Below the pieces are notes generated by a model. The model searched no databases. It was given only the letters and a program-made list of their open reading frames with translations, and had not been told where the DNA came from. A program made the translations under genes and the position numbers. DNA of 64,000 bases. Origin: a virus. The stretch lies in the IMG/VR virus record IMGVR_UViG_3300033233_000004, positions 107,837 through 171,836 of that record, one strand, 5' to 3'. Every line of letters begins with the position of its first letter. The first letter of the stretch is position 1. This document shows, one piece after another, positions 250 to 63,998 of the stretch.

Positions 250-271
250 AAGATAGGAAGTATTAAAACGC

Positions 272-2316: not shown

Positions 2317-2430
2317 GATATTACCTCTCATGTTATTATGTGATTATATTACCTGCAAGACAAACTTGCAGTTATTGTACCGATATTGGAGCGGGATTTA
2401 AGGGAACCCCGCTCAGACCTTTTGCACAGC

Positions 2431-2913: not shown

Positions 2914-2965
2914 AATATTACCTCTTTACATTTGAGATTGAACGAATTTACGATTTTTTGACCGC

Positions 2966-4816: not shown

Positions 4817-5094
4817 ATGAGAACCCCATTTTAAAAATTCATGTAAAAGAAGATGGTATATGTCCACCCTACACACTAAAAGTAATGCTGAGAGGTCGAA
4901 ATTTATAGTGGGTAAGAGAAAAAAGTAAAATAAAAAGAGATGCCACTTACAATGACATCTTTTCGATGACGAAACTTATGTTAATTGCTTAATATAGAGT
5001 AGATTGAGCTATCCCGTATGAGATGCAGTATTTAGCTTCTTTTGGAAGTTTAATACCATGCCACACAGAAATAATAAGATAAACAGAAATGTTA

Positions 5095-12289: not shown

Positions 12290-12790
12290 TCATCTGCCAT
12301 GACACTTTTTGAATTTCTTATTTGAGCCGCAATAACATTTTTCATTACGACCGATCTTTCGATTGATATCGGTAATTAAAATTCCATCAAGATGATTTGT
12401 CTCATGTTGATATACTCTGGAATCATCCCCTGTCAGAACACAATGTCCCATAACATCATCACTAACTTCAATTTGAGAATATCGTTCTACCCAACAATAC
12501 ACATCAGGTAAAGACAAACAACCTTCTTCTGATGTAATCATCGGACGGTCAAAACGAATAATAGTCGGATTAGCAACTCGATTCAAGACTTTCTTGGCAT
12601 CTTCCAATTTGCCAGAAGCTCCCCAATATACAAAAGCTCTTTTCTTGATGCCTATTTGTGGAGCACTCAACCCAATTGCATTTTTATGTTTCTTGATTTC
12701 TTCTTCCAATTGAGCAAATATAGATTCATATTCTTCTGGATAAATCGGGTCGGACGGCTTATGTAGTTCGACGAGATCAGTTACTATCAT
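12290..12790 (-). CDS. def: Peptide deformylase with C-terminal SEC-C zinc motif
   Basis: GLSAPQIG, EGCLS, QHETNHLDG; tail GRNEKCYCGSNKKFKKCHG. Confidence 0.92.
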   Translation of the reverse strand: MIVTDLVELHKPSDPIYPEEYESIFAQLEEEIKKHKNAIGLSAPQIGIKKRAFVYWGASGKLEDAKKVLNRVANPTIIRFDRPMITSEEGCLSLPDVYCWVERYSQIEVSDDVMGHCVLTGDDSRVYQHETNHLDGILITDINRKIGRNEKCYCGSNKKFKKCHGR

Positions 12791-41189: not shown

Positions 41190-41552
41190 TTATAGGTTAA
41201 AAATATCTGCTTCATCGAGAGTAGGAACATTATCGGTAGGAAGCCAAACTACATGCACGAGGTCGTGAGGAAGGAAGATTTCAGAAATGCCTTTGCCAAA
41301 TGCTACTTTGAGAATAATGTCTGTAGGTTTCGGAACAACGTAGTCCGGTACATGACAAATACTCCACCATTCATGTTCATGCGAATGCGGGTAAAAAATA
41401 TGAGTTACTTCGCCAATGCACTTAAGATAGCGCATCCCGTAGCGTACCATACCCACAGTTTTGAAGACAATCAAGACAGAAGCCCCTATTTTTATTGGAA
41501 GAGTTGGAACTGAACCATAATACCTTCCTTTATATTGAAATATTTGACTCAT
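41190..41552 (-). CDS. Hypothetical protein
   Basis: Coupled to thyX stop codon. Confidence 0.55.
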   Translation of the reverse strand: MSQIFQYKGRYYGSVPTLPIKIGASVLIVFKTVGMVRYGMRYLKCIGEVTHIFYPHSHEHEWWSICHVPDYVVPKPTDIILKVAFGKGISEIFLPHDLVHVVWLPTDNVPTLDEADIFNL

Positions 41553-44920: not shown

Positions 44921-47350
44921 TTACATGTATTCTGCCCAAAACTCTTGACTTTCGAGTTGTTTTATAAACGCTGCTTTAGCTTCATCAACTTTGGTATCTA
45001 TTTCATTGAATGCTTTATCCATTGCTTCGGCTGCATAAGCCAAGCCATTCCATATCTTGAATTCGGGTTCTTCGCCTTGTTCTACAAGAAGTTCAGCAGT
45101 GGAATTCAAATCTGGCTCTCTTTGCCACAGCGTCTCCCATATAATTTCTGCATAAGGTAAACCAAACTTAGACTCATTAATTACAAGTTGCAACCAACCG
45201 CCTGACCGACCAGTAATTTCATAACCTTCAATCCATGGATAAGTTTCCTTCAAACTTAATACAAAATCATAAAGAGTAGTTGCTGTGTTTTGTTGGATAA
45301 TACTATTCATATTATCTGCACTTATAGCTAATCGTACATTGTCAGGAATATCTACTCTATAGTATTTGACGTTGAATGCCAATTGTCCATCTACCTCATG
45401 GAAGTGACCGTTCTGTAAGAACGAAGCAATATTCTGATAAGCAGTATTTGCCTGAGTCTTTGCTACATCAATTTGAGACGGCTGAGATATAATATCAGAG
45501 AACTTAAGAGAACCTACTAATTCCATTTCTGGTTCAGGTCGTGGAATAACATACTTAATCTTATTCTTCTCTACTATACCAAATGATTCACTCCCATCAT
45601 TCCAAATTACATACACAGAATCGCCTTCATCTTTAACCGCAGCACCCGTAGTGCCTTTTGGAATTACTCCTTGTGTAGGAATAACGATGTCCTCCAACGC
45701 TTCTACTCGGTGAGATTTATCAGTTCTTTTTGGTGGTCTTCCTCTTCGCTTTGTTACTGGCTTACCATAAGGATATGGATATTCCTCGAAATCAGGAGCG
45801 AGTGAGTCTATAAACTTACGTTCCAATGTTCTACCTACATAAGAGAACCTAAGACTGCCTATACGCTCATCCTCATATGGATTGGTTCTCAATTGCTTTG
45901 GTCGTCCAGTTGATTTATTTTCACGAGATTTTTCAACCTTCTTTCCACATTTTTTACAAGTGTAAATATACTTGTCCCCAATAGCTAAAGGATATCCCAT
46001 AGATATATGGCATTCTGGACACATTGTAGAAGCATAGACATCATGTCTATGTTCTTGTCCGATTTGGCTATCTCCACCTTCAAGCTCCAATTCTGGATAT
46101 TCTTGTGGTTTGCCAGACATTGGTGTGGATGCCTCTGGTTGTGCATTATCCTCTGTTGGTGGCATTGATGTATCTACACCTTCAGATAGACCCTCAAATA
46201 CACCTTCACGGATAAGAAGGAATGGCTCATACATACGACTTACCAACCACGGTGATGTAGAGTTAAGGAATTTACCATTCTTTTGAGGTAGTAAAGCACG
46301 AAGAGAACGAGGCCCCGTGCCCGTCCAAGCTCCTTTGAAACGAATGAATCTCGATTGTCGGCGGGTAGGGGCATTCTCCAAGAGACGATCAATACGGATA
46401 AGGCTATTTGATGTTTGCCAAATTTGTCCTGCACGAGCAATATGCTTGAACTGTTCCCATGTATACTCACCTTGATGAATTGGTCGAGCAGAAGTTGTAT
46501 TTAAAGAAGCTATTTTTTTCCACCAACCACGACCCCTAATAATGTGCTCTCCTTCTTCTTCTACATACAAGTCGCCTGCTACATAGCCTTGTCCAAGTAA
46601 TTGGGCAATATAGTCAAGACTTACTTGGTCGTTAACAAGGTCATAATCGAGAGCATTCTTTCCTGTTAACTGCCACTCAATATCATCTCGTAATACAGTA
46701 ACTACACCATGATTACTTTCATCCTCTTCATAGAAGTCTGGTAATCCAATTACATCTGCAAACTTCAACTCACCAGTCACAGCCATCAAATCCTTACGTA
46801 ATGTAAATGGAAAGTCAGATGATATAAGTGTATTAGGCTGGCTCGGTGTTAGTCGCTGATTGTCGGCTGTACGCCACTGGATACCACTCATAACTATTCG
46901 ATTATTGTCACGAGCAGTTACAGCAAAGTTTGGTTGTAGATGTAAGAAGTTACCAGATTGACTTTGCCACACCTGATTAGGAGCTACCATATTGGCAAAG
47001 TCTCCCATAGAGTTGGCAATTAATTTCTGTTGTGGTGCATTAGCAGTTGGCTGAACGGCTGGTTGTACCTCAGCAGCAGTCTTCTCTTCTGGCAAGAATT
47101 GAAGCTCTCTGATATTGACTGCCAAAGCTCCCATGTACGGTTTATCATCCCAATTTACAAACGCAGTGTCTCCCAACATATTGAAGATAGTACCTTTACT
47201 ATTAGGTGGAAGATTCAAGTCGAAGTTCACATTCTTAAGAGCTACTCTGGCTCCTTTACCAAGAATCGTAAAATGAGGTTGTCCAATGATGTCAGCAGTT
47301 TTTGGTCTGAATGGAAAATGTAATGGTATTATTTTATTGAGTAATTTCAT
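44921..47350 (-). CDS. Large modular protein with KTA-DII/SLKF-DII linkers (Zn ribbon, AT-hook, SH3-like modules)
   Basis: ATGA overlap with upstream gene at 47347-47350; CPEC/CKKC, KRRGRPPK. Confidence 0.75.
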   Translation of the reverse strand: MKLLNKIIPLHFPFRPKTADIIGQPHFTILGKGARVALKNVNFDLNLPPNSKGTIFNMLGDTAFVNWDDKPYMGALAVNIRELQFLPEEKTAAEVQPAVQPTANAPQQKLIANSMGDFANMVAPNQVWQSQSGNFLHLQPNFAVTARDNNRIVMSGIQWRTADNQRLTPSQPNTLISSDFPFTLRKDLMAVTGELKFADVIGLPDFYEEDESNHGVVTVLRDDIEWQLTGKNALDYDLVNDQVSLDYIAQLLGQGYVAGDLYVEEEGEHIIRGRGWWKKIASLNTTSARPIHQGEYTWEQFKHIARAGQIWQTSNSLIRIDRLLENAPTRRQSRFIRFKGAWTGTGPRSLRALLPQKNGKFLNSTSPWLVSRMYEPFLLIREGVFEGLSEGVDTSMPPTEDNAQPEASTPMSGKPQEYPELELEGGDSQIGQEHRHDVYASTMCPECHISMGYPLAIGDKYIYTCKKCGKKVEKSRENKSTGRPKQLRTNPYEDERIGSLRFSYVGRTLERKFIDSLAPDFEEYPYPYGKPVTKRRGRPPKRTDKSHRVEALEDIVIPTQGVIPKGTTGAAVKDEGDSVYVIWNDGSESFGIVEKNKIKYVIPRPEPEMELVGSLKFSDIISQPSQIDVAKTQANTAYQNIASFLQNGHFHEVDGQLAFNVKYYRVDIPDNVRLAISADNMNSIIQQNTATTLYDFVLSLKETYPWIEGYEITGRSGGWLQLVINESKFGLPYAEIIWETLWQREPDLNSTAELLVEQGEEPEFKIWNGLAYAAEAMDKAFNEIDTKVDEAKAAFIKQLESQEFWAEYM

Positions 47351-50300
47351 TTTTCTTCTTTCGGCTGTTGAACTACTTGTACAAAGCGAATCTGTGTCCA
47401 ACCATCTTCCGTTGGAAACCCGGTGGATACGTCTTTATCGGGACTCATAGATTCTTCAAGAGAATTACCAAATATACCATGCACTTGACCAAGCTCTGGA
47501 TTAAGACTGGTAATCTTAACAAACCTATTAATATATTGACCTTGGAGTTGCGCTTGTCCTGCTCGTTGAAAAGACCATACTTGATTTTCACGTGCATACT
47601 GCCAAAAACGTTCTACATCCAATACTTGAGCACTAAGATATCCTATCCAATCAGCTTGTGTATTCATGTCTTCTCCAAACTTAAGTGATGCTACGGCTTC
47701 TTGCGTCGGTGTCGATTCTCCAACTTTCCGAGCTTCATATATCTCTTCATGTTGTTTTGGTGGAGTAAGACTATACGTGACATCACCAATCTTCACAGAC
47801 AACTTTCTACCAAGGGCTGTAGATTCATTACGCTTAATTGTCCATGGTTGACCTTCATCATTAATGTCTGTACGACGAACCATCCATACGTCATTTACTT
47901 GCATTTGTGCATACGCGTCAGCAAGTGGTATCCAAATCTCTGGTGGTTGACGTGGAATTTCATCCCATCCCATCTCTATAGTTTCACCCCGCTCGTGTTG
48001 ACGCGTAGCTTCATCTGCCATGTCTTGTACTGGTGGTGGAACGTTTTCCAAAGGTTCACGTACAACTTCCCCACCAGCATCAATAGGCGGAGTATCTGAA
48101 TACGACCAACTTGTACCATGCCTAAAAGCAAGGTCGCTGGCAAAATTTTCAGCATCGGGTTGGTTATTAAAAGATGATACAAAAGTATCTACTTCATCAG
48201 TTGTATTTAACCACCAAACACCCCACTCTGAATTCCCCACATCCATAGGAGCTACAAGTAATGTACGTTTTGATGTAGGTGTAATTGGGTCTTGTCCTAA
48301 TTCACGGAAAGAGTCAATAATATCACCAAATTTCAAAGATGCAAAATGAGGGGGGAACTTATCGTAGATTTTCTGAGCCTTATCAATTTGGTCTTGTATC
48401 AAAGACTCGTTATAAGGCATAATCTCAGAAGGAGACAATATTTGCGTATTCCAAGAACCACCAATCACACGTTTAGATGCATCAAATTCTACCACATAGA
48501 GAAAACCTTCATCTGGTATTTGTAACCATGGAGTACCACTACTTTTTCTCCAACTATTAAGAGTACGAGTATATTGAGCTTGTCCACGTTCGTAAATCTT
48601 CTTAATAGTAGCAGGAATACCAGCAAGAAACCACACATGCCATGGTAAAGGCCAGTGCTTGGCTGCTTGCTCTACATCCAAAAGAATTCTATCACCAACT
48701 TTATAAGTCGAAAGTTGACTAATAATGTCTGCAAACTTAAGCGAGGCAACAGGATTAATCAATGGTTCTACTGGCAATGCATACCACCGAGCACCGACTA
48801 ATCCATTGGTTCTTCGAAGCTGGATTTCGGCTGCATCTGGCTGTGCTTTGAAATAAACGATAACGTCTGGCCCCGAAGAGCGATACTGGCTTTTTAAGTA
48901 ACCAACATGTCCTTCTTGAATAGCCACCGCATGTATTTGCTTCACAACTCTATTATTATACCACCCCAACATTCTATCACCACCATCAAAATATACAAGC
49001 GTACTCAATATAGAAGCTGGTTGTTCTGATTGTGGTGGCATCTCTGATTTTTCCTGCATAGATGGCTGTCCAATAATGTCAGCTTGCTTCATAAACTCGA
49101 ACGTAAGTCCAGTATAGAGATGTGGTCTCAGTTCTTTCTCTGTTTGTGGCTGTGGTAATGTTTGTCCTTCATAATCAATCATTCTATATTGACTTGGGTC
49201 TGGCTTAGGGCGTGGGTGAGGCCAGTGTGCAGGTGCATAGAATTCATGCTCATTAAATGGACGTACATGTTCATCGTCATAATGCATTTTCTTGAGCATG
49301 TTACGATACGCTGTTTCACCAGTCTCATTATAGTAATCTGGATGATAGTAATTTTCCATCAAGTCCCAACTAATGTATTCCATCGGGTCTATTTCATCAA
49401 ATTCAGTATACCCCCGTTCTTCCATCAACTCTTCAAGCATGGCCTCATTGATAAATATGTCATCCCACGGTACAGTCCAACCATATGAGGCATACAGTAT
49501 TTCTTCAACACCATGCTGATACAATGGGGTGCCTGTATCCAACCAACCTTCTACTTGAACAAGATGTACACCATCAGCGAATTTCTTGGCATAGATAATC
49601 TTTGGGTTTTCCCACTCATCATTATCTTCCAGTAATTCCCAACCGTGTCTATGAGCATATCGACTAATCTCAGTTTCAAACTCGGCAGTTATCTTATTAT
49701 CTCGGTCAACTTCATGCTTCTTACGTGCCACAAACTTCTGAAATGATTCTACATGTTTCTTATGAGCATCTAACATCTGCTGTGGAGTCATACTCGGATA
49801 GTTCTCTTGAGAAACAGTTTGTGGCGGTGGATTTTCATTCTCTTCTATATCTTCGGATTCTGGTGGATGGACATACTCAGGATACTGGTCTGCTATTTCT
49901 TGAAGATACTCATCATAATCTTTTGGTTCGATGTTCTGAATGATGTCTGCTGTCTTGGATTTTCGATAATCATTCAAAACAAGTTCATATGGTTCTTCGT
50001 TTTTATGTACACGTACATTACCCATCTGGTCATCTTGGAAATTATTATGTAAACTTAATTCCCATGTAGAATCAGAAATATCAAAATAATAATCTTTTAT
50101 ATACTTTGTTATTTGTGGGTGTTCACCAATATATAAATATTGAAGGCTACCTAAATGTGATTTCCATACTTGATATGGTCGTATCATTTTTGGTAAATCT
50201 TCCCATTTAATTATCGGTCGAAGTTGGTTAAGAATATCAGCCGTCTTTGTTGGTGATACATCTTTCAGTTTTTCAAACTCTTTCTTAAGCTCTTGATAAC

Positions 50301-51021
50301 CTGCTGTATCCTGTTGATTCTTCTTTCGTAACAATTGTAATTGGTCAATCAATTGACGCTTACGGTCGTATTTTGAATCTGCAAACTTAAGACTTCCTTC
50401 ACCTGCTAACAATCGACCTTCCCATGGAGTGAGATTTGTTACCAATCCATCATAGGTTGCTACAACAATATGGTCATCCATACGATAATATTTATCATCA
50501 GAAGACTTCACATATAGAACTGAGTTAGCGGCTTCCTGTTCTTGATGTAATTGCATCCGCTCTTCAGCAGTTGGCATATATCCCAATTCGTATGCAGTAG
50601 GACGATGATATCTACGACTTTTATGTTGCACCACGAGTGGTATACCAGCATAACTAAGAAATCTATTCATCATGATAGCTGTATATTTCGTATACCAACC
50701 ACCATTGTCCAAGTCTACCTCATTAGGAAGGAATCTAATAATATCCGTATCATGATACTTAATACGTATAGAGAAATCATCAGGTTCAAATCTCACAGTA
50801 ATACCAGTAACAGGGTCATTAATCTTTTTACGGATGATAGTCTTGGATTCAATCTCAGTAGTTTCTGGCACTTTAAGTGTTTGAAAGAAGTCATTGAACA
50901 TACGCTGATAAATCGGATGACCCATTTGTATACGATTCATTGGGTCAATCTGACTGATGATGTCCGCAGTTTTGGTCAACCCACTTATCAGCTTGTTCCA
51001 TATGGTTTTAAACGTAATCAT
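47347..51021 (-). CDS. Large modular protein (1224 aa) with repeated linkers
   Basis: About 8 KTADI/SLKF[AG]D linkers. Confidence 0.8.
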   Translation of the reverse strand: MITFKTIWNKLISGLTKTADIISQIDPMNRIQMGHPIYQRMFNDFFQTLKVPETTEIESKTIIRKKINDPVTGITVRFEPDDFSIRIKYHDTDIIRFLPNEVDLDNGGWYTKYTAIMMNRFLSYAGIPLVVQHKSRRYHRPTAYELGYMPTAEERMQLHQEQEAANSVLYVKSSDDKYYRMDDHIVVATYDGLVTNLTPWEGRLLAGEGSLKFADSKYDRKRQLIDQLQLLRKKNQQDTAGYQELKKEFEKLKDVSPTKTADILNQLRPIIKWEDLPKMIRPYQVWKSHLGSLQYLYIGEHPQITKYIKDYYFDISDSTWELSLHNNFQDDQMGNVRVHKNEEPYELVLNDYRKSKTADIIQNIEPKDYDEYLQEIADQYPEYVHPPESEDIEENENPPPQTVSQENYPSMTPQQMLDAHKKHVESFQKFVARKKHEVDRDNKITAEFETEISRYAHRHGWELLEDNDEWENPKIIYAKKFADGVHLVQVEGWLDTGTPLYQHGVEEILYASYGWTVPWDDIFINEAMLEELMEERGYTEFDEIDPMEYISWDLMENYYHPDYYNETGETAYRNMLKKMHYDDEHVRPFNEHEFYAPAHWPHPRPKPDPSQYRMIDYEGQTLPQPQTEKELRPHLYTGLTFEFMKQADIIGQPSMQEKSEMPPQSEQPASILSTLVYFDGGDRMLGWYNNRVVKQIHAVAIQEGHVGYLKSQYRSSGPDVIVYFKAQPDAAEIQLRRTNGLVGARWYALPVEPLINPVASLKFADIISQLSTYKVGDRILLDVEQAAKHWPLPWHVWFLAGIPATIKKIYERGQAQYTRTLNSWRKSSGTPWLQIPDEGFLYVVEFDASKRVIGGSWNTQILSPSEIMPYNESLIQDQIDKAQKIYDKFPPHFASLKFGDIIDSFRELGQDPITPTSKRTLLVAPMDVGNSEWGVWWLNTTDEVDTFVSSFNNQPDAENFASDLAFRHGTSWSYSDTPPIDAGGEVVREPLENVPPPVQDMADEATRQHERGETIEMGWDEIPRQPPEIWIPLADAYAQMQVNDVWMVRRTDINDEGQPWTIKRNESTALGRKLSVKIGDVTYSLTPPKQHEEIYEARKVGESTPTQEAVASLKFGEDMNTQADWIGYLSAQVLDVERFWQYARENQVWSFQRAGQAQLQGQYINRFVKITSLNPELGQVHGIFGNSLEESMSPDKDVSTGFPTEDGWTQIRFVQVVQQPKEEK

Positions 51022-54000
51022 ACTTGCACTTCTTGTTCTTCGTCCTTTTTTATTAAATTAAACCTTGGATAATCAAGACAATCACGAACTGGTTGTGGCA
51101 TGGTTGAAGTTTTAGAAGAGACTTTAATCAAGTCCGAATATACATTTTCGAACGGCATTTCCATTGTTAACAATTGCACGGGTGGTTCATGAAGTTTACT
51201 ATATACTCCAAATATAGCTGTCTTGTTTCGTAAATTAAAGCCTAAAAGAGTAATTGGACAATCATACACAAAATTGTAAATGGTTGGATATCCTGCATCA
51301 TAAACTTTCTGCTTGTAATCTGGAAGTAATTTCATATCCATATACTGCCATACTTGTTCAAAGGACTCAGTATCAGTGATGAATTCAAACGAATCACCAA
51401 TTCGATAAGTCCATACGTCACTTTGTTCCATATTCAAAATATCGGCTGTCTTGAATGCTTTGTCCACATTCTCCAATAGTTTAAGTACGCGCTTAGTATC
51501 TTCTTTTGAGTTGTTCCACTTCTTGAAATAGTCAACGTCGTTTTCAACTTTTATAATCATGTATCCTACGTCTGGATTATTCTTGTTATAATAAGCAAGT
51601 AATTTCTGTGGGTCAATTTCTCCATAGCCATCATAGAATTTACCTTTATACCATACAAAAGCATGTCCATCAGCACCGTAAGTTTCCATTTGTTCTGCAT
51701 TTGTAGCATCTACAGCAAACAATTCTGCTCCAAATAATTTACGGAACGCTCTTGCTATAGCAACGCAGTCACCGTTATCAACCAATGTCTCGGCTTGCAG
51801 TACTTCTTGATGTTTCTTGTCAAGAAATGGTAATGTTGTTCTGGTAGTATAAGGACGACGAGTTGCAGCTTCCTTAATGTTTCCTTGATATATACCCCTG
51901 TCGATTAGTATTTCATTAGGTGTATCTGGATAATAAGCTATGATACGATACGTTGGATATGATTCGGCAGAGACTTCACCGTATTCCTTGGCACTTCGTT
52001 TATCTTTCGTTACCCATATGAGTCGTTGTGCAGGGATAGATGCTAACGCCTTTTCTGACATAAGTACACGTAAATCCTTATTACCCAATTCATGACGTTC
52101 ATAGTTTATGACATCAAGTGCAGTTTTATTTCTTGGCATTGCACTGTCAGGGCCACCACGATAGAAATGAGTAGCTTCCTTCACTGAGAACTTGAGAGAA
52201 CCTAATCGTCGTGCTTTCATACGTTCTGCTATTGCAGCTAATTCTTGTGGGGTATATCCAGATAAATGATAATCTAAGTACATCTCTTCACCAGTCTCAT
52301 AATCACGTAAAGGATCAACATTCGAATATGTATCATCGTTGGCTTGTTCAGAAGCTCCGTAGTATTCTAACCACTTCACCGTTTGACCAACAATAGAATC
52401 AAACTCGGTGTCGTATTCCTCATCAGCCATATCTACTATGATTTCCTTACCTTCTTCATCTTCCCATCCTGTCTCAGCAAAATCACCAGTCTGTGCCGAT
52501 TCAGGAGTAATAATAGCATATGTGGTCTTGATACGTCTACCAGTTGGATATTCGTCGCGTAAGCCAGTGAGAATGTCAGAAAACTTTGGTACAGCAGAGA
52601 ACTTCAAACTACCAAACGCTATATTCCAATACTGTTTGAACTGAGGTGGAATTCTCGAACCATCTAATGTGTATGCAGCATAACGGTTGCCTAAATACTG
52701 AATCATATTAGCAAATAAGTACTCAAAACCCTGTGGTAGCGATGCCGATAGAATAGTCAACTCCATCTCACTTGGATTAAGCTTGAAGGTCATATTACCA
52801 ATTTTATGTTCCTTGTCTTCATATTGTGTATGTCCTTTGGTAGTCAAAATTAACTCGTATTGATTGTCTCCAACTTTTTTCACATCAAATAATTCAGCTA
52901 CTGTACCAGCAGTAGTCTCTGCTGACGATGTAGTTCGAGTCCAACCTTCCGGTGCCTCTCGTTTATCATCCAAGTATACTTTAATACCACCTAACGATTT
53001 CTTGACGATTACCTGACGATTACCTGACGATTGGGAACCTTGTTGACGTATGTCATTCTTGTACACATTGAATGCAGTAGGGTCATTTTCTTTCAACCAA
53101 TTACCAAATGGTAATCCAGATGCAAGTATTTCATTCGCTTGGTCGGCATAATGTGTCTCTGATGGCTCAAAGTCATTTAATAGTTCAATAGCACGTTTAT
53201 CCCAATCAACATCATCTTCTTGTGCACGGAAGTTCTGAATAATATCTCCAAATTTAAGTGATGCTACTGCATGGGTTAATGTATTCCTGAAATCGTTATT
53301 CACCAAACGGAACTTCATTGGTTGTACCCCATATGCATCCTTTGTCCATATAGTCGGTGGAAACTCAGGATGATTCATCCATTCCCTAATGAATTCCTCA
53401 TTGGTTAACCACGGTGCCCAAAAGCCTTGAGCTATTTTGAAACCTTTGTACTTGTAACCACCCCGATATCCTGATACATATTCATCAATAACTGTTGGGT
53501 CTATAACAAAGAGGTACTTGCCTAATTGAAATGGGTCTGATGCAGGTGACCAAACTTGATAAGGACGCATATATTGTGGCAATTCATCCCATGTAACAAC
53601 CATTTCTTCTGGTAGTTGTGCACCTATAATGTCTGCCGTTACCTGAACCTGTTTTGGCTTTAATAGATAATAAAATGCATCAATAGAGAAGAATAACCAA
53701 CTCCAACCGGAATGTGGCGTACCATAAGTTGTAAGTACTACATCATCTGGATGCAACACTGCGTCTCTCTTTGTAATACCAATATACTGGTTATTAGCCC
53801 ACAAGTCCTTCTTTAAGAATTGAGACTTAGCATGATTACCTTGTGTTTCTGGAAAGTCTGGACTGCCTAATTGTATTACAGTTACTGTCGATGTACGTGG
53901 ACTATTAGCCAAGAGTGGACGCATAGACGTATCCTTGACTTCCCATTCAGAATTTGGTAATGGTTGTGTACGTACTTCTGACATAGGGAAGTTAGATAAT

Positions 54001-55586: not shown

Positions 55587-55615
55587 ATACAAAATATAGA
55601 TAAATGTTAATGCTT

Positions 55616-58600
55616 TTACTGATACGGTTCAGTATTGCCATCCATTTCTCGATAATCAGCATAAATATGAGTACCTTCCTTGGTTACTGCCTCATAATAA
55701 TCAGGATATATCCCAATGATGGTTACTGTATCCCCAATCTCCAATCTCAGGTGTTCACCATTCGTTACTTCCACATCAAATGGCATTGTGACAATGACTT
55801 TCACTGGATTTGGTTCTATGTCACCGCCACGATCTTGATTCACCCAAGCGTAGCGGTGGTCTTTGTAGATGAGTCGGGATATATCTACGTCTTTTTCATC
55901 TGGTTGAATTATATCTGCTGTCTTACCACCAAGATGGTGTTGCTGCTGTGAGACCCAATCTGGTACAGGGTCTTTGGTTACCCAAAACTGGTTGAAGTAT
56001 TCAAGTGGAAGAATAGATGTCACACCATCGACATACTGTGGGTCTACGCCCAGTGTAACGATTACAATGTCGAAGTCCCCAATTTTACTCAAGGCATATG
56101 ATGGTAAAGAGGAATCAGGATACTTCTGTAAAGCATTAAGTTTGGTACCAATATATACAATAGAAGATTTGCCAAACGTAAGATTATGCCATACGAATTG
56201 ACCTATGTGTAAATCTGGATGTTCAGGCTGTGGTTCGCCTACTATATCTGCTTTCTTAATAGGCGGATTATATTTCTTTTCCCATTCTTCTACTGGTACG
56301 AAATCACTATAAAGTTCGTATATCGGTGTGAATATCCAAGAGTCCTTTTCGTAAGGTGCATGCATTCTCACAACAGGCGTACCCGATGGAAGTTTTCTCA
56401 AATTATCTATGTTTAATGCACCACCGGGAACATAAGGCAATACCTCTTCAATAGGACTAATCATATCCACTACCCAACTTACTTGTGCTTGTGGGTCATC
56501 ATGCATGAATTCCTTACCAAGTAGACTTTCTGATGGATTAACAATATCTCCTATAATATCTGATGTCTTTTGAAGTTGCCATGCTATACGTTGCCATTCA
56601 TCTATAGTAGCCCATCGAAGACCGTGTATACGGGTTCTTTCGAATATAACAACAATAGCATTTTTATCAGCCATACCCCATAGAGAAAATGCTGGTGAGC
56701 CATATCGTGTTGCATCACCCCACGAAGGTTTTAAATCAGCTACTCGACCGACCGCTATTACATAGAAAGAATCGGATGGTTGTTGTGGTTGAATATACTT
56801 CTCACCAACTGTAGGTATACTAATAATGTCTGCTGTAGTTTCTATAGAACTATATTGTGAGAATTCTATTTGTTCCAATACACTTTCAGGAGTTCCTTCA
56901 AAATCCATTCTACCTTTTTGGTTACCTATTATTGACCCTGTATCTTCGTTAACGTATTCCACTCTTACTTTAGTATTGGGATTGAGTGTACGCAGATACT
57001 TAATCAAGGCATTCTTCGACTTACGTATGTCTGTTATCATAATGTTATTGAAGTATGTACGCAACCAGCCTTTATCAAGAAGGAATTTAATTTGTGTCCA
57101 TCTCTCCGTACCAGACAAATCTACATTATATTCCTTCTCGGCTATTTCTCTTGCAATAGCACCATGATCGTCTATACCACTTTCGTCATAATATGGCTCA
57201 CCATTAGGGTCGATAAATCCATAATGACCTTCAAGCTCGGAATACTTCTTAACACTTTGTTTGATGTACCTTGGATATTGGCTATAATCACCATAGACAA
57301 TAGATGGATACGCCTCACCTTCCAATTCACTATTGTCAGCAGTCTTTGAAGATGTTTGTTTAACAGGGGTGTCCACAATCAATTTCCATACGACAATACC
57401 AACGTTACCTTCTGTCTCACCGTCTTCTATAGCACGAGCGATAAGGTTTACCGTTTCTGGTCGCAGTGGACGTTTAGATGGATTGCCTTGTCGAACCCAC
57501 TTCAACTTCCAGCCAGCACCAGAAGTAATACCATAACGCACCAATAAAGCAATATCTTCTTTTGGCAAAGCTCCCACCAAGCCAATAATATCGGCAGTCT
57601 TTATAGTAGACTGTTCTTGTCGAGTATTCATAAATACATCCAAACGTTCTGCGTAAGGACGACTTGTGTTAAAAGAAGCATTATATACCACGACCATATC
57701 ATCCAATGAATCAATACTATACTTATACTTATTTTCCCAATTATCCAATTCCTTAATAGACATACCAAACTTTTCTTCAGCTTCTTTTCCAGTACATACA
57801 TCAAGAACGGTAACTATAGAATATGGGTATTCTCTATGTCTCCAAGTAGTACCAATAGCAATTGGATATTGCATTTTGTTAATTATATCCGCAGTACGAT
57901 GAATAGCCGCCTTTTTGTATAGACGAAAATTCTCACTAAATAATCCTATTGGTATATATATTACATCACGGGGATTATACGTATTTTCTGAATTGAATAT
58001 CGCTACAAAAAAATCAGTATTATTGTCTTTGTATTCTTGCCATGGTCTGTCTTGATTAGCAAAAGGATGACGATAACGAATATCCTTTAATGTACCTATA
58101 TCGAGTACTTCCCACTTAATACCGCCAGTTATATCTTTATTGGTATATATTTCTCCAATAGATATATTGAAATTTGGAATGTTAGAGATAATGTCTGCAA
58201 TCTTCTTCTGTGAACTTGGTACAAAAAGATAGTTCAACTCCTCAATAGTCAATGCCATATATTTCCATGAAAGTTCGTTATCAGCATAATACATACGCAA
58301 TAAACCAAACACTAATTGAGAATCGTTTGGTAACGATGTCTGAAATAGCGATCTATTTGTGTATGGCACATGAATAAACACATGGGCATGCTTCTTGCTC
58401 AGTTCCGCCTTTGTACCAAAATCCACTATTTCAAATGTAATAGTAGTAGGAAATTCATCGTTGGGATCATGGTCATATAACAACGCTGACATCTGATTAG
58501 GCTTAACAGTATAGATTGTACCTATTACTGGTTCAGTAGGGAATTGAGATAGTATATCAGCAGTGGTATCCAAAGGTTTCTCAACGTGTTCATAATAATC

Positions 58601-59395
58601 AATAAAATCTTCAACAGGTGCCCACCAATAATGTTTCTCCTGAGTATCACTCTCACTATACCACACAATGTATGGGTTATCTTTCTTCATTTTCTGTATA
58701 GATACTCGCATATCATTGGTACTATGCATGTAGTCTTCCCCTAACTGACGAAGAGCAATATTAAAGGACTCAATTTTGTAGGGTTCCATAACACCACCAC
58801 TATGAGGAGATTTATAGTGATCATAAAGAATGACATCATGAATAGGGAATTGAGATAGTATGTCGGCAGTAGTACTTAGTGGTATTTTGGAATAGGTAGC
58901 CAATTCAGGATCATCGGGATAGAAGAATTGAAAATCCACACGACGATTGTTCCAGTGTGGTTTGGATGCATTGGTAGGGAACTTAGAGTGGTATTCTTCA
59001 GAAAGTTGTAACGATGTCTTACCTCGTATAGGTTGAACGATTACACCAATGTCAAGGTCGCTATCAGGTGTAGCCGTACCTTTAGCCTCTGAGCCAATGA
59101 TGAAGGCATCAAGGATTGGTCGGTGGGTTGGTGCATATAAACTATTACGTAAGGTATTACGCACCCACGATACGGAAGGATAGGCAGAATCAGACACTTT
59201 TCCTACTTTATCCAACTCCACTGTGGAAATCTGACTGGAATCATCATTCTCTTCTAAATTGAAGTCGGAACGTGGTTCGGTAGGCATCGCATCAGAGCCA
59301 CCAGAGGTCGGATTGGACTCTGAGTAATATCGCACAGAAGTCGGGATAGAGGATACCCCGACTTCCAAAGATGTACTTGAGGTAATTTTTTCCAT
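55616..59395 (-). CDS. Large modular protein (1259 aa) with an N-proximal minimal nucleotidyltransferase domain
   Basis: IIGSEAKG...DSDLDIGV; about 10 T[AS]DI[IL]-like linkers. Confidence 0.8.
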   Translation of the reverse strand: MEKITSSTSLEVGVSSIPTSVRYYSESNPTSGGSDAMPTEPRSDFNLEENDDSSQISTVELDKVGKVSDSAYPSVSWVRNTLRNSLYAPTHRPILDAFIIGSEAKGTATPDSDLDIGVIVQPIRGKTSLQLSEEYHSKFPTNASKPHWNNRRVDFQFFYPDDPELATYSKIPLSTTADILSQFPIHDVILYDHYKSPHSGGVMEPYKIESFNIALRQLGEDYMHSTNDMRVSIQKMKKDNPYIVWYSESDTQEKHYWWAPVEDFIDYYEHVEKPLDTTADILSQFPTEPVIGTIYTVKPNQMSALLYDHDPNDEFPTTITFEIVDFGTKAELSKKHAHVFIHVPYTNRSLFQTSLPNDSQLVFGLLRMYYADNELSWKYMALTIEELNYLFVPSSQKKIADIISNIPNFNISIGEIYTNKDITGGIKWEVLDIGTLKDIRYRHPFANQDRPWQEYKDNNTDFFVAIFNSENTYNPRDVIYIPIGLFSENFRLYKKAAIHRTADIINKMQYPIAIGTTWRHREYPYSIVTVLDVCTGKEAEEKFGMSIKELDNWENKYKYSIDSLDDMVVVYNASFNTSRPYAERLDVFMNTRQEQSTIKTADIIGLVGALPKEDIALLVRYGITSGAGWKLKWVRQGNPSKRPLRPETVNLIARAIEDGETEGNVGIVVWKLIVDTPVKQTSSKTADNSELEGEAYPSIVYGDYSQYPRYIKQSVKKYSELEGHYGFIDPNGEPYYDESGIDDHGAIAREIAEKEYNVDLSGTERWTQIKFLLDKGWLRTYFNNIMITDIRKSKNALIKYLRTLNPNTKVRVEYVNEDTGSIIGNQKGRMDFEGTPESVLEQIEFSQYSSIETTADIISIPTVGEKYIQPQQPSDSFYVIAVGRVADLKPSWGDATRYGSPAFSLWGMADKNAIVVIFERTRIHGLRWATIDEWQRIAWQLQKTSDIIGDIVNPSESLLGKEFMHDDPQAQVSWVVDMISPIEEVLPYVPGGALNIDNLRKLPSGTPVVRMHAPYEKDSWIFTPIYELYSDFVPVEEWEKKYNPPIKKADIVGEPQPEHPDLHIGQFVWHNLTFGKSSIVYIGTKLNALQKYPDSSLPSYALSKIGDFDIVIVTLGVDPQYVDGVTSILPLEYFNQFWVTKDPVPDWVSQQQHHLGGKTADIIQPDEKDVDISRLIYKDHRYAWVNQDRGGDIEPNPVKVIVTMPFDVEVTNGEHLRLEIGDTVTIIGIYPDYYEAVTKEGTHIYADYREMDGNTEPYQ

Positions 59396-59412
59396 ATAGG
59401 TACCATGAATCC

Positions 59413-61755
59413 TTACCCTAATGCGGAGAGTGTCGTCTTGTATTTTCTACCAGAGAATGAAGCAATAACCTCTTCTCCACTAATGGACTCGATAATACCA
59501 TCACCAAGGTTTACATCTTTGACAGATGAACCTACTGACCAAAAACCTCTTGATTTTGAAGGGAGACCTTTGTAACCATCGTTGTAACCACGAGTATAAT
59601 CTTCATTTGGAGAATTAAGGGCTACATTTAATGCGGGTTGTCCGTTGACTTTATCCAAATGTCCATTCCTATAGCCATCTTCATAGGTTAAAGCTGCTGA
59701 TGCTTTCTTACCCTTGGTTGTTGATACTGGTGCAGGTTCAGGGGCAGGTTGAACCTGAGATTGGTCTTGAGCACCTGCCGGTGGAACTACTGGTTGAGGT
59801 TGAGGAACACCATTGACCATATCAGATGTACCCGGTGGTGTATCTTCCATAGAGATATTTACAGTACCATCAGTCTTTCTTTGAAACTCAATGTTCGCTG
59901 CTTCCTTGGATTTCATATGAGCTTCATCTTCTTTACGAAGCTTGAACTCTTCAGAACCTTCATCTTCTACTTCCTCACCACGCTTACTGTATTCATGATT
60001 CTTATGGAAGTTCATTTGACCTTCACTGAACCCTGAATCACATGTAGTGCAATAGTATGGCTTCTTAGCAGCAGTTTTCTTCGAAGATATTACCTCCAAC
60101 TTTTGTGTACTTCGCATATCACCATATCCCAACTCATCCCAATCAACTGTAGCAACCAAACCATCTACCCGTAGTACAGTTCCGTGTAAACCACGCTCTC
60201 TATCAAGTACACGTGAACCTATTTGTACTTCTGGATTACCCGGAGTATAAGGTATATTAAGACCTGTAGCGTCATAATTACTACCATAATCAGCTACTGA
60301 CATGAGAACAGATTCCCATGAAGATTTCTTTGGCTTAGTGTCGTGAAGCTTCATACCACGATTTTTCATCCACCATGCGAGTGCGAATGGATTATCCACT
60401 TTCTTGCTCTTCTTCAATTCGTGAACTGTGTATTCCGAATGAGGTGGTGACTTGGCTAAAGTCTTCCATGAAGATTCACCATGAAGACCTTTGTCAAAGT
60501 CATCATTATCTTCCGATGGTTCTGATAAATCTTCCGATGTATCATCCTTCTTTAACTCACCATTATCCTTTGTCGGAGTGCCTATATCGCCTCTGAACTC
60601 ATTAACTATCTGAACGATGTTCTCTGCTGTAAAGAACTTTGGCTCTCCATCCTCACCAATAGCATATGCCACACTACCTTCAGGAACTTCGCAAAGATCG
60701 GTATCGTTGATAGAAGGACTATCAGTAAGCTTTTTCGCTTCATTGGCATCGTCGTCATAACCCTTTGCCTTCTCTTCCAGTTCATTGTGCTTAATACCAT
60801 CTTCGCCTTCCACTTTCTCAGGTGGTACCGTATAATCAGCCTTATATTCAAAGCTGGCTATAAAGTTACCAAGAGGGGTAAGAATTATTGCTGCATCATT
60901 ACGCTCTGGACGAGTGTATGCAACTACAATCAAATTCTCATTGGTAGGTGAGGCTTCACCATTAGGACTGACATAGATGCATTCCTTTGCAGCAATCCTC
61001 TCTTTAAACTTGGCAAATGTACCCATATCCTGCAATACAGCAATATTCTTGGATACACGAGATGCAAATTTAGAACCAATACGATACTTGGTGCCAACTG
61101 TAGATGATTTTGGACGCATATCATGAATGCCCCCATGAATACCGAATGGTTGGCGAGGACTAAATCGTCGTTCTCTATCTTCTAACGATTCGTCTACCAT
61201 AAAATCACTCCCTGTACCAGTAGGATCACCCTCACTTGGCATAAAACGGGTATCACATTTTGGACAAATTATGTTAAAGCCGTTTGTTGGAGAAAAGTCT
61301 TGACTTGCTCCTTGAAAACCACATGATGGGCAGTGATAATATCTAACCGCATTTTTATTAAGATTAAACATGTTCTTCCAAGCACCTGTCTTGTAAGTAG
61401 GTTCTGAACCCTTAGCCAACTCATCGTGTGTCTTCACAGTCTCCGCTCGACCAGCATTCTCATTAGTCAATACGTCCTTGAGATATCGCCAATTTTTCTC
61501 TTTAAGAGAATCACCATTACGGGGATTTGCCTTAAGACGATAAGTCTTATCCATGGCATTCTGTTCCTTCCAAGTGGATATTTCTTTCTTGGCGGGGTCA
61601 CCCGTAGCGGGATATTTGTCCCCTGTAAACTCAGCCCGTAAAGGTGTCTCCTTACCTTTCTCGTTCTTGAATAATACACGTTTTTGCTGTTGCGTAGTCA
61701 GGCTTGTGTTAATGCTTGACAATTTAAGTAATATTTGTTTCCAGTTGATACGCAT
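59413..61755 (-). CDS. Large putative virion protein (780 aa)
   Basis: Zn ribbons CPSC/CPKC and CTTC, SH3-like modules, low-complexity linkers. Confidence 0.7.
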   Translation of the reverse strand: MRINWKQILLKLSSINTSLTTQQQKRVLFKNEKGKETPLRAEFTGDKYPATGDPAKKEISTWKEQNAMDKTYRLKANPRNGDSLKEKNWRYLKDVLTNENAGRAETVKTHDELAKGSEPTYKTGAWKNMFNLNKNAVRYYHCPSCGFQGASQDFSPTNGFNIICPKCDTRFMPSEGDPTGTGSDFMVDESLEDRERRFSPRQPFGIHGGIHDMRPKSSTVGTKYRIGSKFASRVSKNIAVLQDMGTFAKFKERIAAKECIYVSPNGEASPTNENLIVVAYTRPERNDAAIILTPLGNFIASFEYKADYTVPPEKVEGEDGIKHNELEEKAKGYDDDANEAKKLTDSPSINDTDLCEVPEGSVAYAIGEDGEPKFFTAENIVQIVNEFRGDIGTPTKDNGELKKDDTSEDLSEPSEDNDDFDKGLHGESSWKTLAKSPPHSEYTVHELKKSKKVDNPFALAWWMKNRGMKLHDTKPKKSSWESVLMSVADYGSNYDATGLNIPYTPGNPEVQIGSRVLDRERGLHGTVLRVDGLVATVDWDELGYGDMRSTQKLEVISSKKTAAKKPYYCTTCDSGFSEGQMNFHKNHEYSKRGEEVEDEGSEEFKLRKEDEAHMKSKEAANIEFQRKTDGTVNISMEDTPPGTSDMVNGVPQPQPVVPPAGAQDQSQVQPAPEPAPVSTTKGKKASAALTYEDGYRNGHLDKVNGQPALNVALNSPNEDYTRGYNDGYKGLPSKSRGFWSVGSSVKDVNLGDGIIESISGEEVIASFSGRKYKTTLSALG

Positions 61756-61781
61756 GATATTTACTCCATTTGTTTGTTGTA

Positions 61782-63998
61782 TTAGTCTAACTCGTAGACA
61801 TATATTTCACCTTCAAATCCTCTATTAACACCGAGTGATCGAAGAACTTCTTTTGGTAAATCGTTTATGTTCATATAATATGAATCCAAAGTCCTCTGAT
61901 TAAAACCCAATACGTTAAGATATTCACCTCTACCCCGTGCGCTTATACGTCTAACATCCTCGCGAGACAAGCCATGTGCTAACTCAATGGCTTTATCTGC
62001 CATTTCGTCCGTAGCCATAGCATACATACGCCCATCCATCTGGACAACGGGTAAACTATTGTGTGTTCTACCCTGTATTAACGATACGTGTTTAGAACGT
62101 CCTCTTAACATATCCGAAAACTTCAAGTTAATATGTTTATTCGAACCATATTTAGACATAAAATCTTCTTGTGAGCCTTGAAATACAACAGCAGGGATAT
62201 ATGCATACTCATGTTCTTGTAACCATTGCTGCATTTCTGATGATAATTCTCGTCCCGCATACTCATAATATTGACCAACGATATAAGCATACTCTTCTTT
62301 TATATTTTCAGATTCATACGGTTGATAAATGTTAATCAATACTTCTTTGAATTTAACTGGTTGACTATCAAGATACTTCTTAGCTACTTCTATTACATGC
62401 TGAGTGTCAAACCCACTAAAAGCAATACCACTGCCTTGTTCTGTAGAATAATATGCTTGAGTAGCATCATTTACACGCACCCAACCACGAATTAACAGAT
62501 AATTCAAAGCTATTAAACTTACGGTTATAAAGTAATCATTATCTGTTTTCGGAGCTACTTCAAGTAAACTTTGAAGTCTCTTATATACGTCAGGAACATG
62601 CTTTATTAATTCCATAGCTAATATATTATGCACTCCAAATGCTTTTCCTTCTGCGGAATAGAACTTTCCATCGGGGGATAGTAAACCATCTGGAATAGAA
62701 GTCGTATATAATACTCTTGGATGTTGCCCCTGATGTTCCTTGGACTTATAGTAATCATCTCTGTACTGATAATCATCAGCACCTTCTGTAGTCAATGAAG
62801 CCTTGAATTTGAATTGACGTTTCCAACCTGTACCCGATGGAGTATCTTTAGAAACCCCACCTTTCTGCGGAACGAACTGATAACCGGGTATTTGTTGATA
62901 AGTTAATTCACCAGTCTGCGATGGCATATTAAGCAATTTATCTAAAGCTCCTTGAACATCGCCTTGATATACTGGTGTTTCTTCTATTAATTTGAATGAG
63001 TTAATATCATGTTTTAAAAGTATTAATTCAACTTCGGTATTCTTGGGTAAAGTGTTTAAGTATTGACTAATCAAATCACTCTGGTCTTTATTTAAACCAC
63101 TTCCACCAACACCTACTTGGATTATGCCACCATTAATGTATATATAACCTCTACTTAACAATGCGTTATCAGCAGGTACATTAAATCTATTCTGGAATTC
63201 TACTGGTGTCAATCCAAAAAGTTTTTGAACTTCAAAAGCACGTTTATTAAACGGAATCACGTTACCCTGTGGCGTAATTAACGCATCAGATATTTCTGAA
63301 AACTTTAATGATGCATGTTGTGATTTAATAGATTGTAATTCTTCAGGATATACTTGAAAAATATTTCCATCTCTATCTTTAACACGATACATTGCTTCAT
63401 ACATTTTGGTTTCAGGTGTATATTCAACCACAGTAACTATTTGCATATCATTTCTATCATCTATGTTAGTATATAATACCTTACTACCTTCTGGAAATAT
63501 CCACTTAGTATATTCTGGTTGTTCAGGAAAATTCGTAATTATGTCAGCAAGTTTCAACGAAGAAGGTGAAAATAAAACTTGTTCTATTTCTGAAAACTTT
63601 AACGATGCTGTACTTTCTTTCACATACATCCAAGCATCTTGTTCTGCCTTAATCTTTAATACCGATGCATCAAATGGTATACCCGCTAATCGTGCAGCAT
63701 GAGCAGCAGCATGAGCAACATAAGCAGCATCAGCAGCAGAAGAAGCAGCATGAGCAGCATTAGCAGCATTAGCAGCAGCATGGGCAGCATAAGCAGCAGC
63801 ATCAGCATTAGTAGCAGCATAAACAGCAGTATAAGCAGCATCAGCAGCAGCATCAGCAGTTTCTTTTGTTTGATGCTTCAACCACAATCTCGCTGCATCA
63901 ATTGCTGCACGAGGACGGTTATCATTGGGATATGCATCTTCAAATATTTTGATTACTGCTTCTGCACAATATACCGCCCATAAGACGTTAACTATCCT
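61782..63998 (-). CDS. Partial large modular protein; Imm5-like segment, Ala-rich repeat, SLKFS linkers
   Basis: Frame is open past 63887 to the window edge: WAVYCAEAVIKIFEDAYPNDNRPRAAIDAARLW. Confidence 0.75.
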   Translation of the reverse strand, partial: RIVNVLWAVYCAEAVIKIFEDAYPNDNRPRAAIDAARLWLKHQTKETADAAADAAYTAVYAATNADAAAYAAHAAANAANAAHAASSAADAAYVAHAAAHAARLAGIPFDASVLKIKAEQDAWMYVKESTASLKFSEIEQVLFSPSSLKLADIITNFPEQPEYTKWIFPEGSKVLYTNIDDRNDMQIVTVVEYTPETKMYEAMYRVKDRDGNIFQVYPEELQSIKSQHASLKFSEISDALITPQGNVIPFNKRAFEVQKLFGLTPVEFQNRFNVPADNALLSRGYIYINGGIIQVGVGGSGLNKDQSDLISQYLNTLPKNTEVELILLKHDINSFKLIEETPVYQGDVQGALDKLLNMPSQTGELTYQQIPGYQFVPQKGGVSKDTPSGTGWKRQFKFKASLTTEGADDYQYRDDYYKSKEHQGQHPRVLYTTSIPDGLLSPDGKFYSAEGKAFGVHNILAMELIKHVPDVYKRLQSLLEVAPKTDNDYFITVSLIALNYLLIRGWVRVNDATQAYYSTEQGSGIAFSGFDTQHVIEVAKKYLDSQPVKFKEVLINIYQPYESENIKEEYAYIVGQYYEYAGRELSSEMQQWLQEHEYAYIPAVVFQGSQEDFMSKYGSNKHINLKFSDMLRGRSKHVSLIQGRTHNSLPVVQMDGRMYAMATDEMADKAIELAHGLSREDVRRISARGRGEYLNVLGFNQRTLDSYYMNINDLPKEVLRSLGVNRGFEGEIYVYELD
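63695..63860 (-). repeat. Imperfect GCA-based tandem repeat encoding (A-A-X)n
   Basis: AAADAAYTAVYAATNADAAAYAAHAAANAANAAHAA. Confidence 0.85.

Follow-up and report, generated by a model that had tools for sequence, protein, structure and literature searches.

The window analysed here, the last 64 kb (64,000 nucleotides) of virus record IMGVR_UViG_3300033233_000004 (171,836 bp), ends in a cluster of six giant open reading frames (ORFs A to F). We found that five of these ORFs are divided into modules by a recurrent junction peptide, typified by K-T-A-D-I-I, that is restricted to this cluster. The sites sit at domain and homology borders, and related phages have a conserved version of the gene cluster in which the peptide takes lineage-specific forms, or dialects. 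We put the chances at about even that these junctions are sequence-specific cleavage sites of polyproteins of the polyvalent type. The finding is well documented at the level of sequence; the mechanism is one that we infer.

The six ORFs run head to tail on the minus strand and are tightly packed (Table 1). Together they encode 7,966 amino acids, which is 13.9% of the genome. A, B, and C are joined through ATGA stop-start overlaps, and the remaining gaps are 17-26 nucleotides. These positions agree with a first-pass annotation made from the DNA alone, but the annotation gave the last ORF about 700 residues. In fact ORF F has 2,353 residues, and its frame continues across the join of the circular contig into genome positions 1-4924. 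(The first and last 81 bases of the contig are identical, an exact overlap that leaves 171,755 bp of unique sequence, so the genome is circular or circularly permuted.)

Table 1. The giant ORFs, their junction sites, and selected modules (positions are nucleotides of the window; aa, amino acids).
Feature	Position	Strand	Description	Junction sites (residues)
ORF A	44921..47401	-	826 aa from TTG; likely start ATG 47350, which gives an 18-aa leader and then the first junction	36, 215, 635
ORF B	47347..51021	-	1,224 aa; 17-aa N-terminal leader, then K-T-A-D-I-I	19, 214, 261, 358, 647, 764, 899, 1116
ORF C	51018..55592	-	1,524 aa	214, 310, 529, 653, 782, 999/1005 (tandem pair), 1136, 1383
ORF D	55616..59395	-	1,259 aa; N-terminal Pol-beta nucleotidyltransferase, then nine modules of ~100 aa (one ~250 aa)	177, 279, 400, 502, 601, 855, 945, 1049, 1160
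ORF E	59413..61755	-	780 aa; low-complexity stretches, zinc ribbons, without the junction motif	
ORF F, window part	61782..63998	-	C-terminal 738 aa	1751, 1766, 1849, 2243 of ORF F in the window; two more outside it
Full site L-T-K-T-A-D-I-I-S-Q (example)	50950..50979	-	Directly 3' of the ORF B leader	
Module C02			phmmer-matched stretch, C residues 325-533	
Module C04			phmmer-matched stretch, C residues 667-790	
Module C06	52191..52535	-	Fold core, C residues 1020-1134; phmmer-matched stretch, 1006-1130; ~110-aa widespread family without a Pfam model	
Module C07a	51900..52187	-	C residues 1136-1231, also the phmmer-matched stretch; occurs alone or inside polyvalent proteins (1,000-4,268 aa) of other elements	
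Module C07b	51513..51833	-	C residues 1254-1360, also the phmmer-matched stretch; Cys1276, His1310, Asp1321	
Module C08			phmmer-matched stretch, C residues 1378-1512	
Imm5-like domain	63687-63986	-	Residues 5-104 of the window part of ORF F	

We defined a full site as K, T, or R at position -2 and T or F at -1, followed by [AGS]-D-[IVM]-[ILV]. There are 29 full sites, and with further S-L-K-F-[AGS] sites the junctions number 35 (33 in the window): three in ORF A, eight in B, nine each in C and D, none in E, and six in F. Aligned on the small residue, the conserved columns run from -5 to +8 and read [S/A]-S-L-K-[T/F]-[A/S/G]-D-I-[I/L]-[S/G/N]-[Q/N]-phi-P (phi, a hydrophobic residue). All 29 full sites have the Asp, 27 of the 29 have the next Ile, and 23 of the 29 have Lys at -2. 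Some sites stand in tandem, 4-14 residues apart.

The core pattern [AGS]D[IV][ILV] occurs 30 times in the 8.3 thousand residues of the cluster versus 26 times in 44.7 thousand residues elsewhere (a six-fold lower rate), and no match in the latter set has K-T or K-F in front of it. Shuffled cluster sequences contain 2.6 +/- 1.7 copies, so the enrichment is more than 10-fold. With a 14-column weight matrix, the 29 sites have a leave-one-out median score of 16.4 bits, and in the remaining 45,026 residues of the proteome a single site, a weak look-alike, reaches 10 bits. ORF E has no match of 8 bits or more. Pieces of the motif are also the most over-represented tripeptides of the phage (DII, 22 occurrences versus 2.3 expected; TAD, 20 versus 2.2).

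Codon usage at the sites varies: GAT is used 17 times and GAC 14 times, AAG 16 times and AAA 7 times, all four Ala codons appear, and Ser is encoded by both TCN and AGY. Because synonymous codons vary at every position, selection acts on the peptide and not on the DNA. We rejected a DNA-level repeat or an assembly artefact as the source of the motif, since the codons differ among copies. (A degenerate DNA pattern for K-T-A-D-I-I-S-Q had nine single, isolated matches in public collections, which we read as chance.) The first-pass annotation had described about 30 copies in five of the six ORFs, conserved as peptide with varied codons, and had proposed a comparison with the rest of the proteome; our counts and codon tally agree with the description, and the comparison finds the motif nearly absent elsewhere.

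We then examined what lies between the junctions. They delimit about 40 segments of roughly 100-400 residues, which by BLASTP are mostly unrelated to each other; the exceptions are F01 and F03, which are 75% identical, and the pair B03 and C04. We therefore rejected a single repeated domain whose conserved end would be the motif, as the modules belong to different families. The modules of about 100 residues in ORF D share only a loose common pattern, and a profile test on these modules scored its own members, so it is no proof of homology. As to F01 and F03, two 100-nucleotide copies that are 98% identical lie 3,114 nucleotides apart in ORF F (genome 1-100 and 3115-3214); both follow a junction and open these two Imm5-like modules. 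This repeat is a recent internal duplication or gene conversion.

Homology borders coincide with the junctions. A phmmer search with residues 325-1524 of ORF C against 1.84 billion representative sequences gave 372 matches; their limits coincide with junctions, and the matched stretches fit single segments (Table 1). Stand-alone homologues of C06, C07a, C07b, and C08 also start and stop at junctions, and the homology match of C07a begins exactly at a junction, between S-L-K-F and S. (C07a resembles ART-PolyVal by eye, but the similarity is not significant by BLASTP and is absent in Pfam. The ESM Atlas had no usable match for C07.) Across 42 BLASTP alignments with relatives, the match ends lie a median of 7.5 residues from a junction or terminus, versus 42 residues in 1,000 permutations, and 74% of ends lie within 15 residues of a junction versus 19% in permutations (maximum 35%); a caveat is that the conserved motif may itself anchor the ends of matches.

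Structure prediction gives a similar picture for C06, a family that makes up a large share of the 372 matches, many of them stand-alone proteins of 110-150 residues. Its consensus is R-I-x-T-T-Y...T-P-E-S-A-x-x-G-D...G-W-E-D-E-E-G...Y-H-L-x-G-F-T. The AlphaFold2 (AF2) model of ORF C residues 990-1145 (80-sequence alignment) has a mean predicted local distance difference test (pLDDT) score of 84.6, with the C06 core above 90 and the motif-bearing ends at 58-73. The tandem-site segment, residues 995-1008, has a pLDDT of about 70 and a weak helix over S-D-I-L-T-G-L-R, and the S-L-K-F at residues 1132-1135 is the fraying end of the last C06 helix (pLDDT about 60). The alignment of the C06 family begins about 15 residues after the motif, which places the motif outside the conserved domain. 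(Foldseek found no PDB match for the C06 model.) The beads-on-a-string architecture proposed in the first-pass annotation, with the motif at module joints, is thus borne out by homology borders and by AF2; the annotation had also considered that motifs might fall inside folded domains, and AF2 instead puts the motif on the flanks of the confident C06 core.

The cluster is conserved in relatives. Full-length relatives of ORF C turned up in a HMMER search (P0009, P0010, P0011, P0012, and P0014). Runs of giant ORFs lie on four contigs: three ORFs on L017, two on L018, ORFs of 4,369, 2,481, 1,184, and 1,018 residues on L019 (part of a 194-kb contig), and ORFs of 1,896, 1,467, 1,113, and 933 residues on L020. 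By BLASTP, these ORFs are orthologous to ours and keep the order D/F-like, C, B, A on all four contigs. ORF B has orthologues on each of them, in L019 and in L020 the fourth giant ORF is the orthologue of ORF A, and the ORF D orthologue is the first giant ORF of L017. A small conserved gene follows A in the relatives, and its counterpart here is at window 41190-41552. The first-pass annotation had proposed a look at module order in related genomes, and in L017-L020 modules are inserted or missing between junctions. The first and last modules of C, B04, B08, and two QVW-type domains of A are conserved anchors. These two domains form the conserved core of ORF A, at 50-59% identity to L019 and L020, and extra cassettes are inserted between them in both of those relatives. 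Other modules are gained or lost exactly between junctions; for example, C03 is absent from P0009. (A small domain with Q-V-W, as in R-P-Y-Q-V-W or G-Q-V-W-Q, recurs in ORFs A, B, and C and in the giant ORFs of L019 and L020.) Scans of IMG/VR with ORF D, ORF B, and an alignment of the C-terminal module found no close relatives, and a metagenome scan for relatives found nothing. When ORF D was the query, a word-indexed search gave one partial relative; with C07b it gave only P0013.

The junction peptide differs between these lineages, and it differs in the same way at both types of site. This phage has K-T-A-D-I-I at its KT-type sites and S-L-K-F-[ASG]-D-I-I at its SL-x-F-type sites. The corresponding forms are K-T-A-D-I-A-S-N and S-S-L-K-F-S-D-I-[A/V] in L017, and [R/K]-T-A-D-M-[V/A]-x-V and S-L-[R/C/T]-F-A-D-M in L018 and L020. 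L019 has [R/T]-T-A-E-[G/A]-L and S-L-F-T-F-A-E-G-L. In each of these four dialects, both site types carry the second half that is particular to their own phage. In an unbiased count, pieces of the motif are the most over-represented tripeptides in each phage: EGL occurs 32 times in L019 versus 4.5 expected, and ADM 10 times in L020 versus 0.8 expected. (The more distant P0017 has S-S-L-K-L-[S/G]-W, and the protein begins M-L-K-L-A-D.) Dozens of independent copies with different codons are unlikely to drift together; this is the pattern that would be expected if one trans-acting, co-evolving factor read them all. The dialects point to one such reader per phage, for example a protease.

What kind of proteins are these? 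The six ORFs appear to be of the polyvalent-protein type, each a chain of modules that would fold independently. Polyvalent proteins are giant proteins of phages and plasmids with many conflict-type domains (2-15 or more; ART, NTase, peptidases, Fic, pyrophosphatase, DNA mimics, and others) in varying arrangements, and they are predicted to be delivered with the DNA and to have their domains released by embedded peptidases (PMC5512222). Our ORFs are very large (826-2,353 residues), with about 40 segments, and some of their domains belong to the conflict repertoire. ORF D has Pfam Polbeta and NTP_transf_2 matches at residues 90-138 (nt 58982-59128) and is weakly MntA-like in NCBIfam. The N-terminal part of ORF F has a winged helix, Qnr-like pentapeptide repeats, and a second copy of the Imm5-like domain. 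PHROGs, Pfam, and NCBIfam found nothing in ORFs A, B, C, and E. Orthologues in relatives add ART-PolyVal, InPase (pyrophosphatase), Fic, Hist_deacetyl, and GNAT domains.

The likeness to the polyvalent proteins of Iyer et al. (2017) lies in the same stringing together of unrelated conflict-type domains, but there are three differences. Their paper reports no junction peptide between domains, and the word "linker" is never used (PMC5512222). Here, four to six such genes stand in a row. And the MPTase, which is embedded in about 36% of polyvalent proteins and is their commonest embedded peptidase (others are assemblin-like or LonC; PMC5512222), was not found here. We also looked at some 20-odd other polyvalent proteins that share C07a or C06, and none has a recurrent peptide, so the junction code belongs to this phage family and not to polyvalent proteins at large. 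In full-text literature searches, we met no account of a conserved junction peptide in proteins of this kind.

If the junctions are cleavage sites, then one phage-encoded, trans-acting factor would read them, most likely a dedicated sequence-specific protease, and cutting would separate the modules and strip the short N-terminal leaders. Three features lead us to favour processing over a linker: the co-variation of the dialects, the short leaders followed by a site, and the tandem sites with spacers of 4-14 residues. In all four B orthologues, the motif follows a short, non-conserved leader of 3-17 residues, and in the C orthologues the leader is 10-30 residues. We infer the cutting itself, and its place, agent, and timing, from patterns of this kind. 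Two elements stay most constant across dialects, a small residue (A, S, or G) directly followed by an acidic one. The position in front of the small residue changes even among orthologous junctions (T, F, H, Y, I, N, or L), and K or R usually fills the position ahead of it. Signal peptidases, and proteases with assemblin-type sites (between A and S), cut after a small residue and follow a -3/-1 logic. As the K/R-x-[A/S/G] pattern fits this logic, the scissile bond would most likely lie between the small and the acidic residue, that is, between K/R-x-[A/S/G] and [D/E]-phi-phi, with K or R at P3, a variable P2, A, S, or G at P1, and D or E at P1'. This matches the guess of the first-pass annotation. 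Cuts after the Asp or Glu, or ahead of the hydrophobic pair, are conceivable alternatives. The products would presumably be effectors of host takeover or anti-defence and might enter together with the DNA; purely by analogy with polyvalent proteins, they might be packaged in the virion. A more specific proposal, in which a dedicated phage protease reads a lineage-specific code, six genes yield at least 35 effectors, and site and protease co-evolve into incompatible dialects, seems to us somewhat less probable than even.

We searched for the protease. The genome has no match to the Pfam families S77 (T4 gp21; PF03420), S78 (HK97; PF04586), ClpP (PF00574), S49 (PF01343), S21 (PF00716), or MPTase-PolyVal (PF18818), although the negatives for S77 and S21 are weak because the control genomes had no match either, and a divergent protease may be present. 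Two candidate peptidases did emerge, and we could link neither to the motif. One is module C07b of ORF C, in which a Cys-His-Asp set is invariant in the three known members (our own C, P0013, and P0014). In a low-confidence AF2 model (three-sequence alignment), Cys1276 lies at the N-terminus of a helix and His1310 and Asp1321 lie on successive strands. The best Foldseek/VIA-align matches are nearly all Cys-His-Asp enzymes of the papain/transglutaminase fold: SseI (Z 5.7), and also TecA, AvrPphB, a transglutaminase, PMT, CPR-C4, NlpC/P60, and SpvD. C07b is thus a candidate thiol enzyme of this fold and could be a processing peptidase or an effector. The other is a stand-alone putative phage metallopeptidase of 169 residues (PF18894, E 4.7e-22, with H-E-L-E-H; genome 62071-62580, minus strand), the only recognisable peptidase gene found besides a peptide-deformylase-like gene. 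We also considered cross-linking by a transglutaminase through the Lys of the motif and dropped it, because other dialects have Arg, Cys, Thr, or Phe in its place.

Several observations weigh against cleavage. Besides the empty protease-family searches, all fold scores for C07b (Z of at most 5.7) are below significance and the model's pLDDT is 57; several of its look-alikes are deamidases or acyltransferases, not peptidases; and the module was found only here and in L019 (the available contigs are partial). Most phage cleavage sites are shorter and less hydrophobic than this motif (L-K-F-A-D-I-I), part of which has a weak helical character in AF2. In the L017 orthologue of B, the motif follows only M-P-K-K, so that a cut would remove few residues. 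Finally, some S-L-K-F sites lack the acidic residue.

Some of these same observations would suit an uncleaved docking tag, in which one phage partner (a capsid-interior, portal, chaperone, or packaging protein) binds a multivalent short linear motif and so loads or organises the intact giant proteins; the dialects would then stem from co-evolution with this partner. Co-variation of dialects requires just a trans-acting binder and no protease; the motif spans 12-14 residues and is amphipathic, with weak helicity in AF2; the N-terminal copy in L017, after 3-4 residues, fits a tag better than a propeptide; the searches for protease families gave no match; and the phage encodes its own GroEL-type chaperonin. 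But binding one giant protein does not call for a tag at every module border, with none inside the modules. The modules also exist as stand-alone proteins, which suggests that they act separately, and tandem sites with short spacers and leaders before first sites are typical of processing sites. On balance we think a docking tag unlikely. We are more doubtful that the motif is a passive joint, that is, a linker or capping sequence that tolerates any neighbour and serves as a recombination joint for cassettes, with no dedicated reader. Gain and loss of modules exactly between junctions is what such a joint would give, the 98%-identical repeat right after two ORF F junctions fits it too, and S-L-K-F does end the last C06 helix in the model. 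However, copies with different codons offer poor DNA homology for recombination, an Asp that is invariant in 29 of 29 sites is not expected of a linker, and in other lineages a passive sequence would not have all its copies change jointly to E-G-L or D-M-x. A recurrent junction peptide is also missing from other polyvalent proteins that have these domains.

Cleavage could also take the special form that the first-pass annotation had in mind, with the prohead (head-maturation) protease cutting the sites inside the prohead and the modules as virion cargo. The head proteases of T4, phiKZ, and SPN3US provide the precedent: they act on many internal head proteins through short motifs, in some cases at more than one site, and trim off N-terminal propeptides of 20-250 residues (PMC10052503), which the short leaders before our first sites resemble. 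Here, though, the weight matrix finds the motif neither in the capsid protein, nor in a scaffold-like protein, nor in other proteins (one look-alike of 10 bits or more), and no protease of families S77, S78, S14, S49, or S21 is detectable in the genome. The capsid protein is of the short HK97 type and near a separate scaffold-like gene (636 aa, window 2966-4876, upstream). The cluster itself lies outside the structural gene block, about 40 kb from the head genes. (The genes for T4 internal proteins likewise lie apart from its head genes, so packaging is compatible with this distance.) Since the motif is missing from the head proteins and our searches met no known prohead protease family, we regard this enzyme as an improbable cutter, even a shade less probable than a passive joint. 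Least probable of all, to the point of being barely credible, is a protease-independent, cis-acting element that is self-cleaving or acts like a 2A peptide during translation. It would explain the empty protease searches, and the 2A of foot-and-mouth disease virus, L-K-L-A-G-D-V-E-S-N-P-G-P, is reminiscent of our L-K-F-A-D-I-I-S-Q-x-P. Yet the defining N-P-G-P is in no copy, here or in relatives: neither NPG nor PGP occurs in the six ORFs or in the relatives' giant ORFs, and the 2A signature D-[VI]-E-x-N-P-G-P is absent from them. The E-G-L and D-M-x-V dialects lose the S-Q-x-P part altogether, and 2A action relies on eukaryotic translation factors. Overall, the giant proteins appear to match polyvalent proteins and to lack both the motif shared with head proteins that marks prohead-protease substrates and the signature of 2A peptides.

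How would sequence-specific cleavage at these junctions compare with known systems? In T4, phiKZ, and SPN3US, as would be the case here, one protease acts on many proteins through a short recurring motif. Their motifs have three residues (L/I-x-E, S/A/G-x-E, and A-x-E) and are common to capsid and portal proteins, whereas ours has 12-14 residues, is confined to the giant ORFs, and lies between whole domains. Polyproteins that are cut by a sequence-specific viral protease are known from potyviruses (NIa sites) and African swine fever virus (the Gly-Gly-X sites of pp220 and pp62). These resemble our proteins in having many units per ORF and sites of several residues, and their lineage variants co-evolve with the protease; unlike ours, they belong to eukaryotic viruses with known proteases and proven cleavage, while this is a tailed double-stranded DNA phage known from sequence alone. 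The MARTX toxins of Vibrio trade effector modules between strains as cassettes, and an internal cysteine protease domain, which cuts between modules beside a small residue, sets them free. Our proteins share the cassette modules, and ORF C has a module with a Cys-His-Asp set, but MARTX sites are minimal (Leu then a small residue) and the toxins are secreted bacterial proteins, not phage proteins with a motif of 12-14 residues. There is also no C80 protease domain here, as no Pfam family matches at E of 0.01 or less besides the nucleotidyltransferase, Imm5-like, and pentapeptide matches.

If the junctions are cut, this phage family would have a polyprotein strategy, for which RNA viruses and a few eukaryotic DNA viruses are the known examples to date: about 14% of the genome would give six precursors, from which dozens of small proteins would be cut. 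Processing of polyvalent proteins has long been predicted, and the motif would supply the first concrete, testable sequence rule for it. Functional screens would also gain a simple means of marking off about 40 uncharacterised effector or anti-defence domains. The system might further provide a new pair of protease and site, with a specificity of 8-12 residues and natural orthogonal dialects, that could be used as a tool. And if the junctions are not cut, a tag of 12-14 residues with 35 copies, co-evolving across phages, would still mark some recognition system.

As for the phage itself, it is a large, uncultured, contractile-tailed (myovirus-like) phage, as judged from PHROGs matches to a tail sheath, a baseplate wedge, and an HK97-type major head protein (window 348-1145). 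Nearly all of its genes are on the minus strand. The cluster is flanked by genes of nucleotide metabolism, a ribonucleotide reductase and ThyX, on one side and by an SLT transglycosylase and unknown genes on the other. This phage is very distant from cultured phages: a blastn search against GenBank phages found no match, and the class II ribonucleotide reductase that adjoins the cluster shares no more than 45% identity with any phage protein. A scan of the cluster for promoters and terminators found sites no more often than expected by chance.

We also noticed several other genes. The gene for the major head protein seems to be interrupted (window 348-2343, minus strand). PHROG 2522 matches the head protein at profile positions 63-315 only, an ORF for a LAGLIDADG homing endonuclease lies within the interrupted gene at window 1222-2052, and Rfam has a match to a group I intron at window 1190-1376 (E 1.5e-9; 44.2 bits, where the gathering score is 50). 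A candidate N-terminal exon of the head gene lies at about window 2164-2320. Elsewhere on the minus strand, the GroEL-type chaperonin (Cpn60_TCP1, E 1.4e-71) is encoded at genome 21995-23626, and a TnpB/Cas12f-like gene (OrfB_IS605 and TNB domains) lies within the tail gene region at genome 81713-82924. The peptide-deformylase-like gene is an ORF of 166 residues at window 12290-12790, also on the minus strand. By eye, it has H-E-T-N-H-L-D-G as in peptide deformylase and ends in C-Y-C-G-S, which is like the zinc motif of SEC-C.

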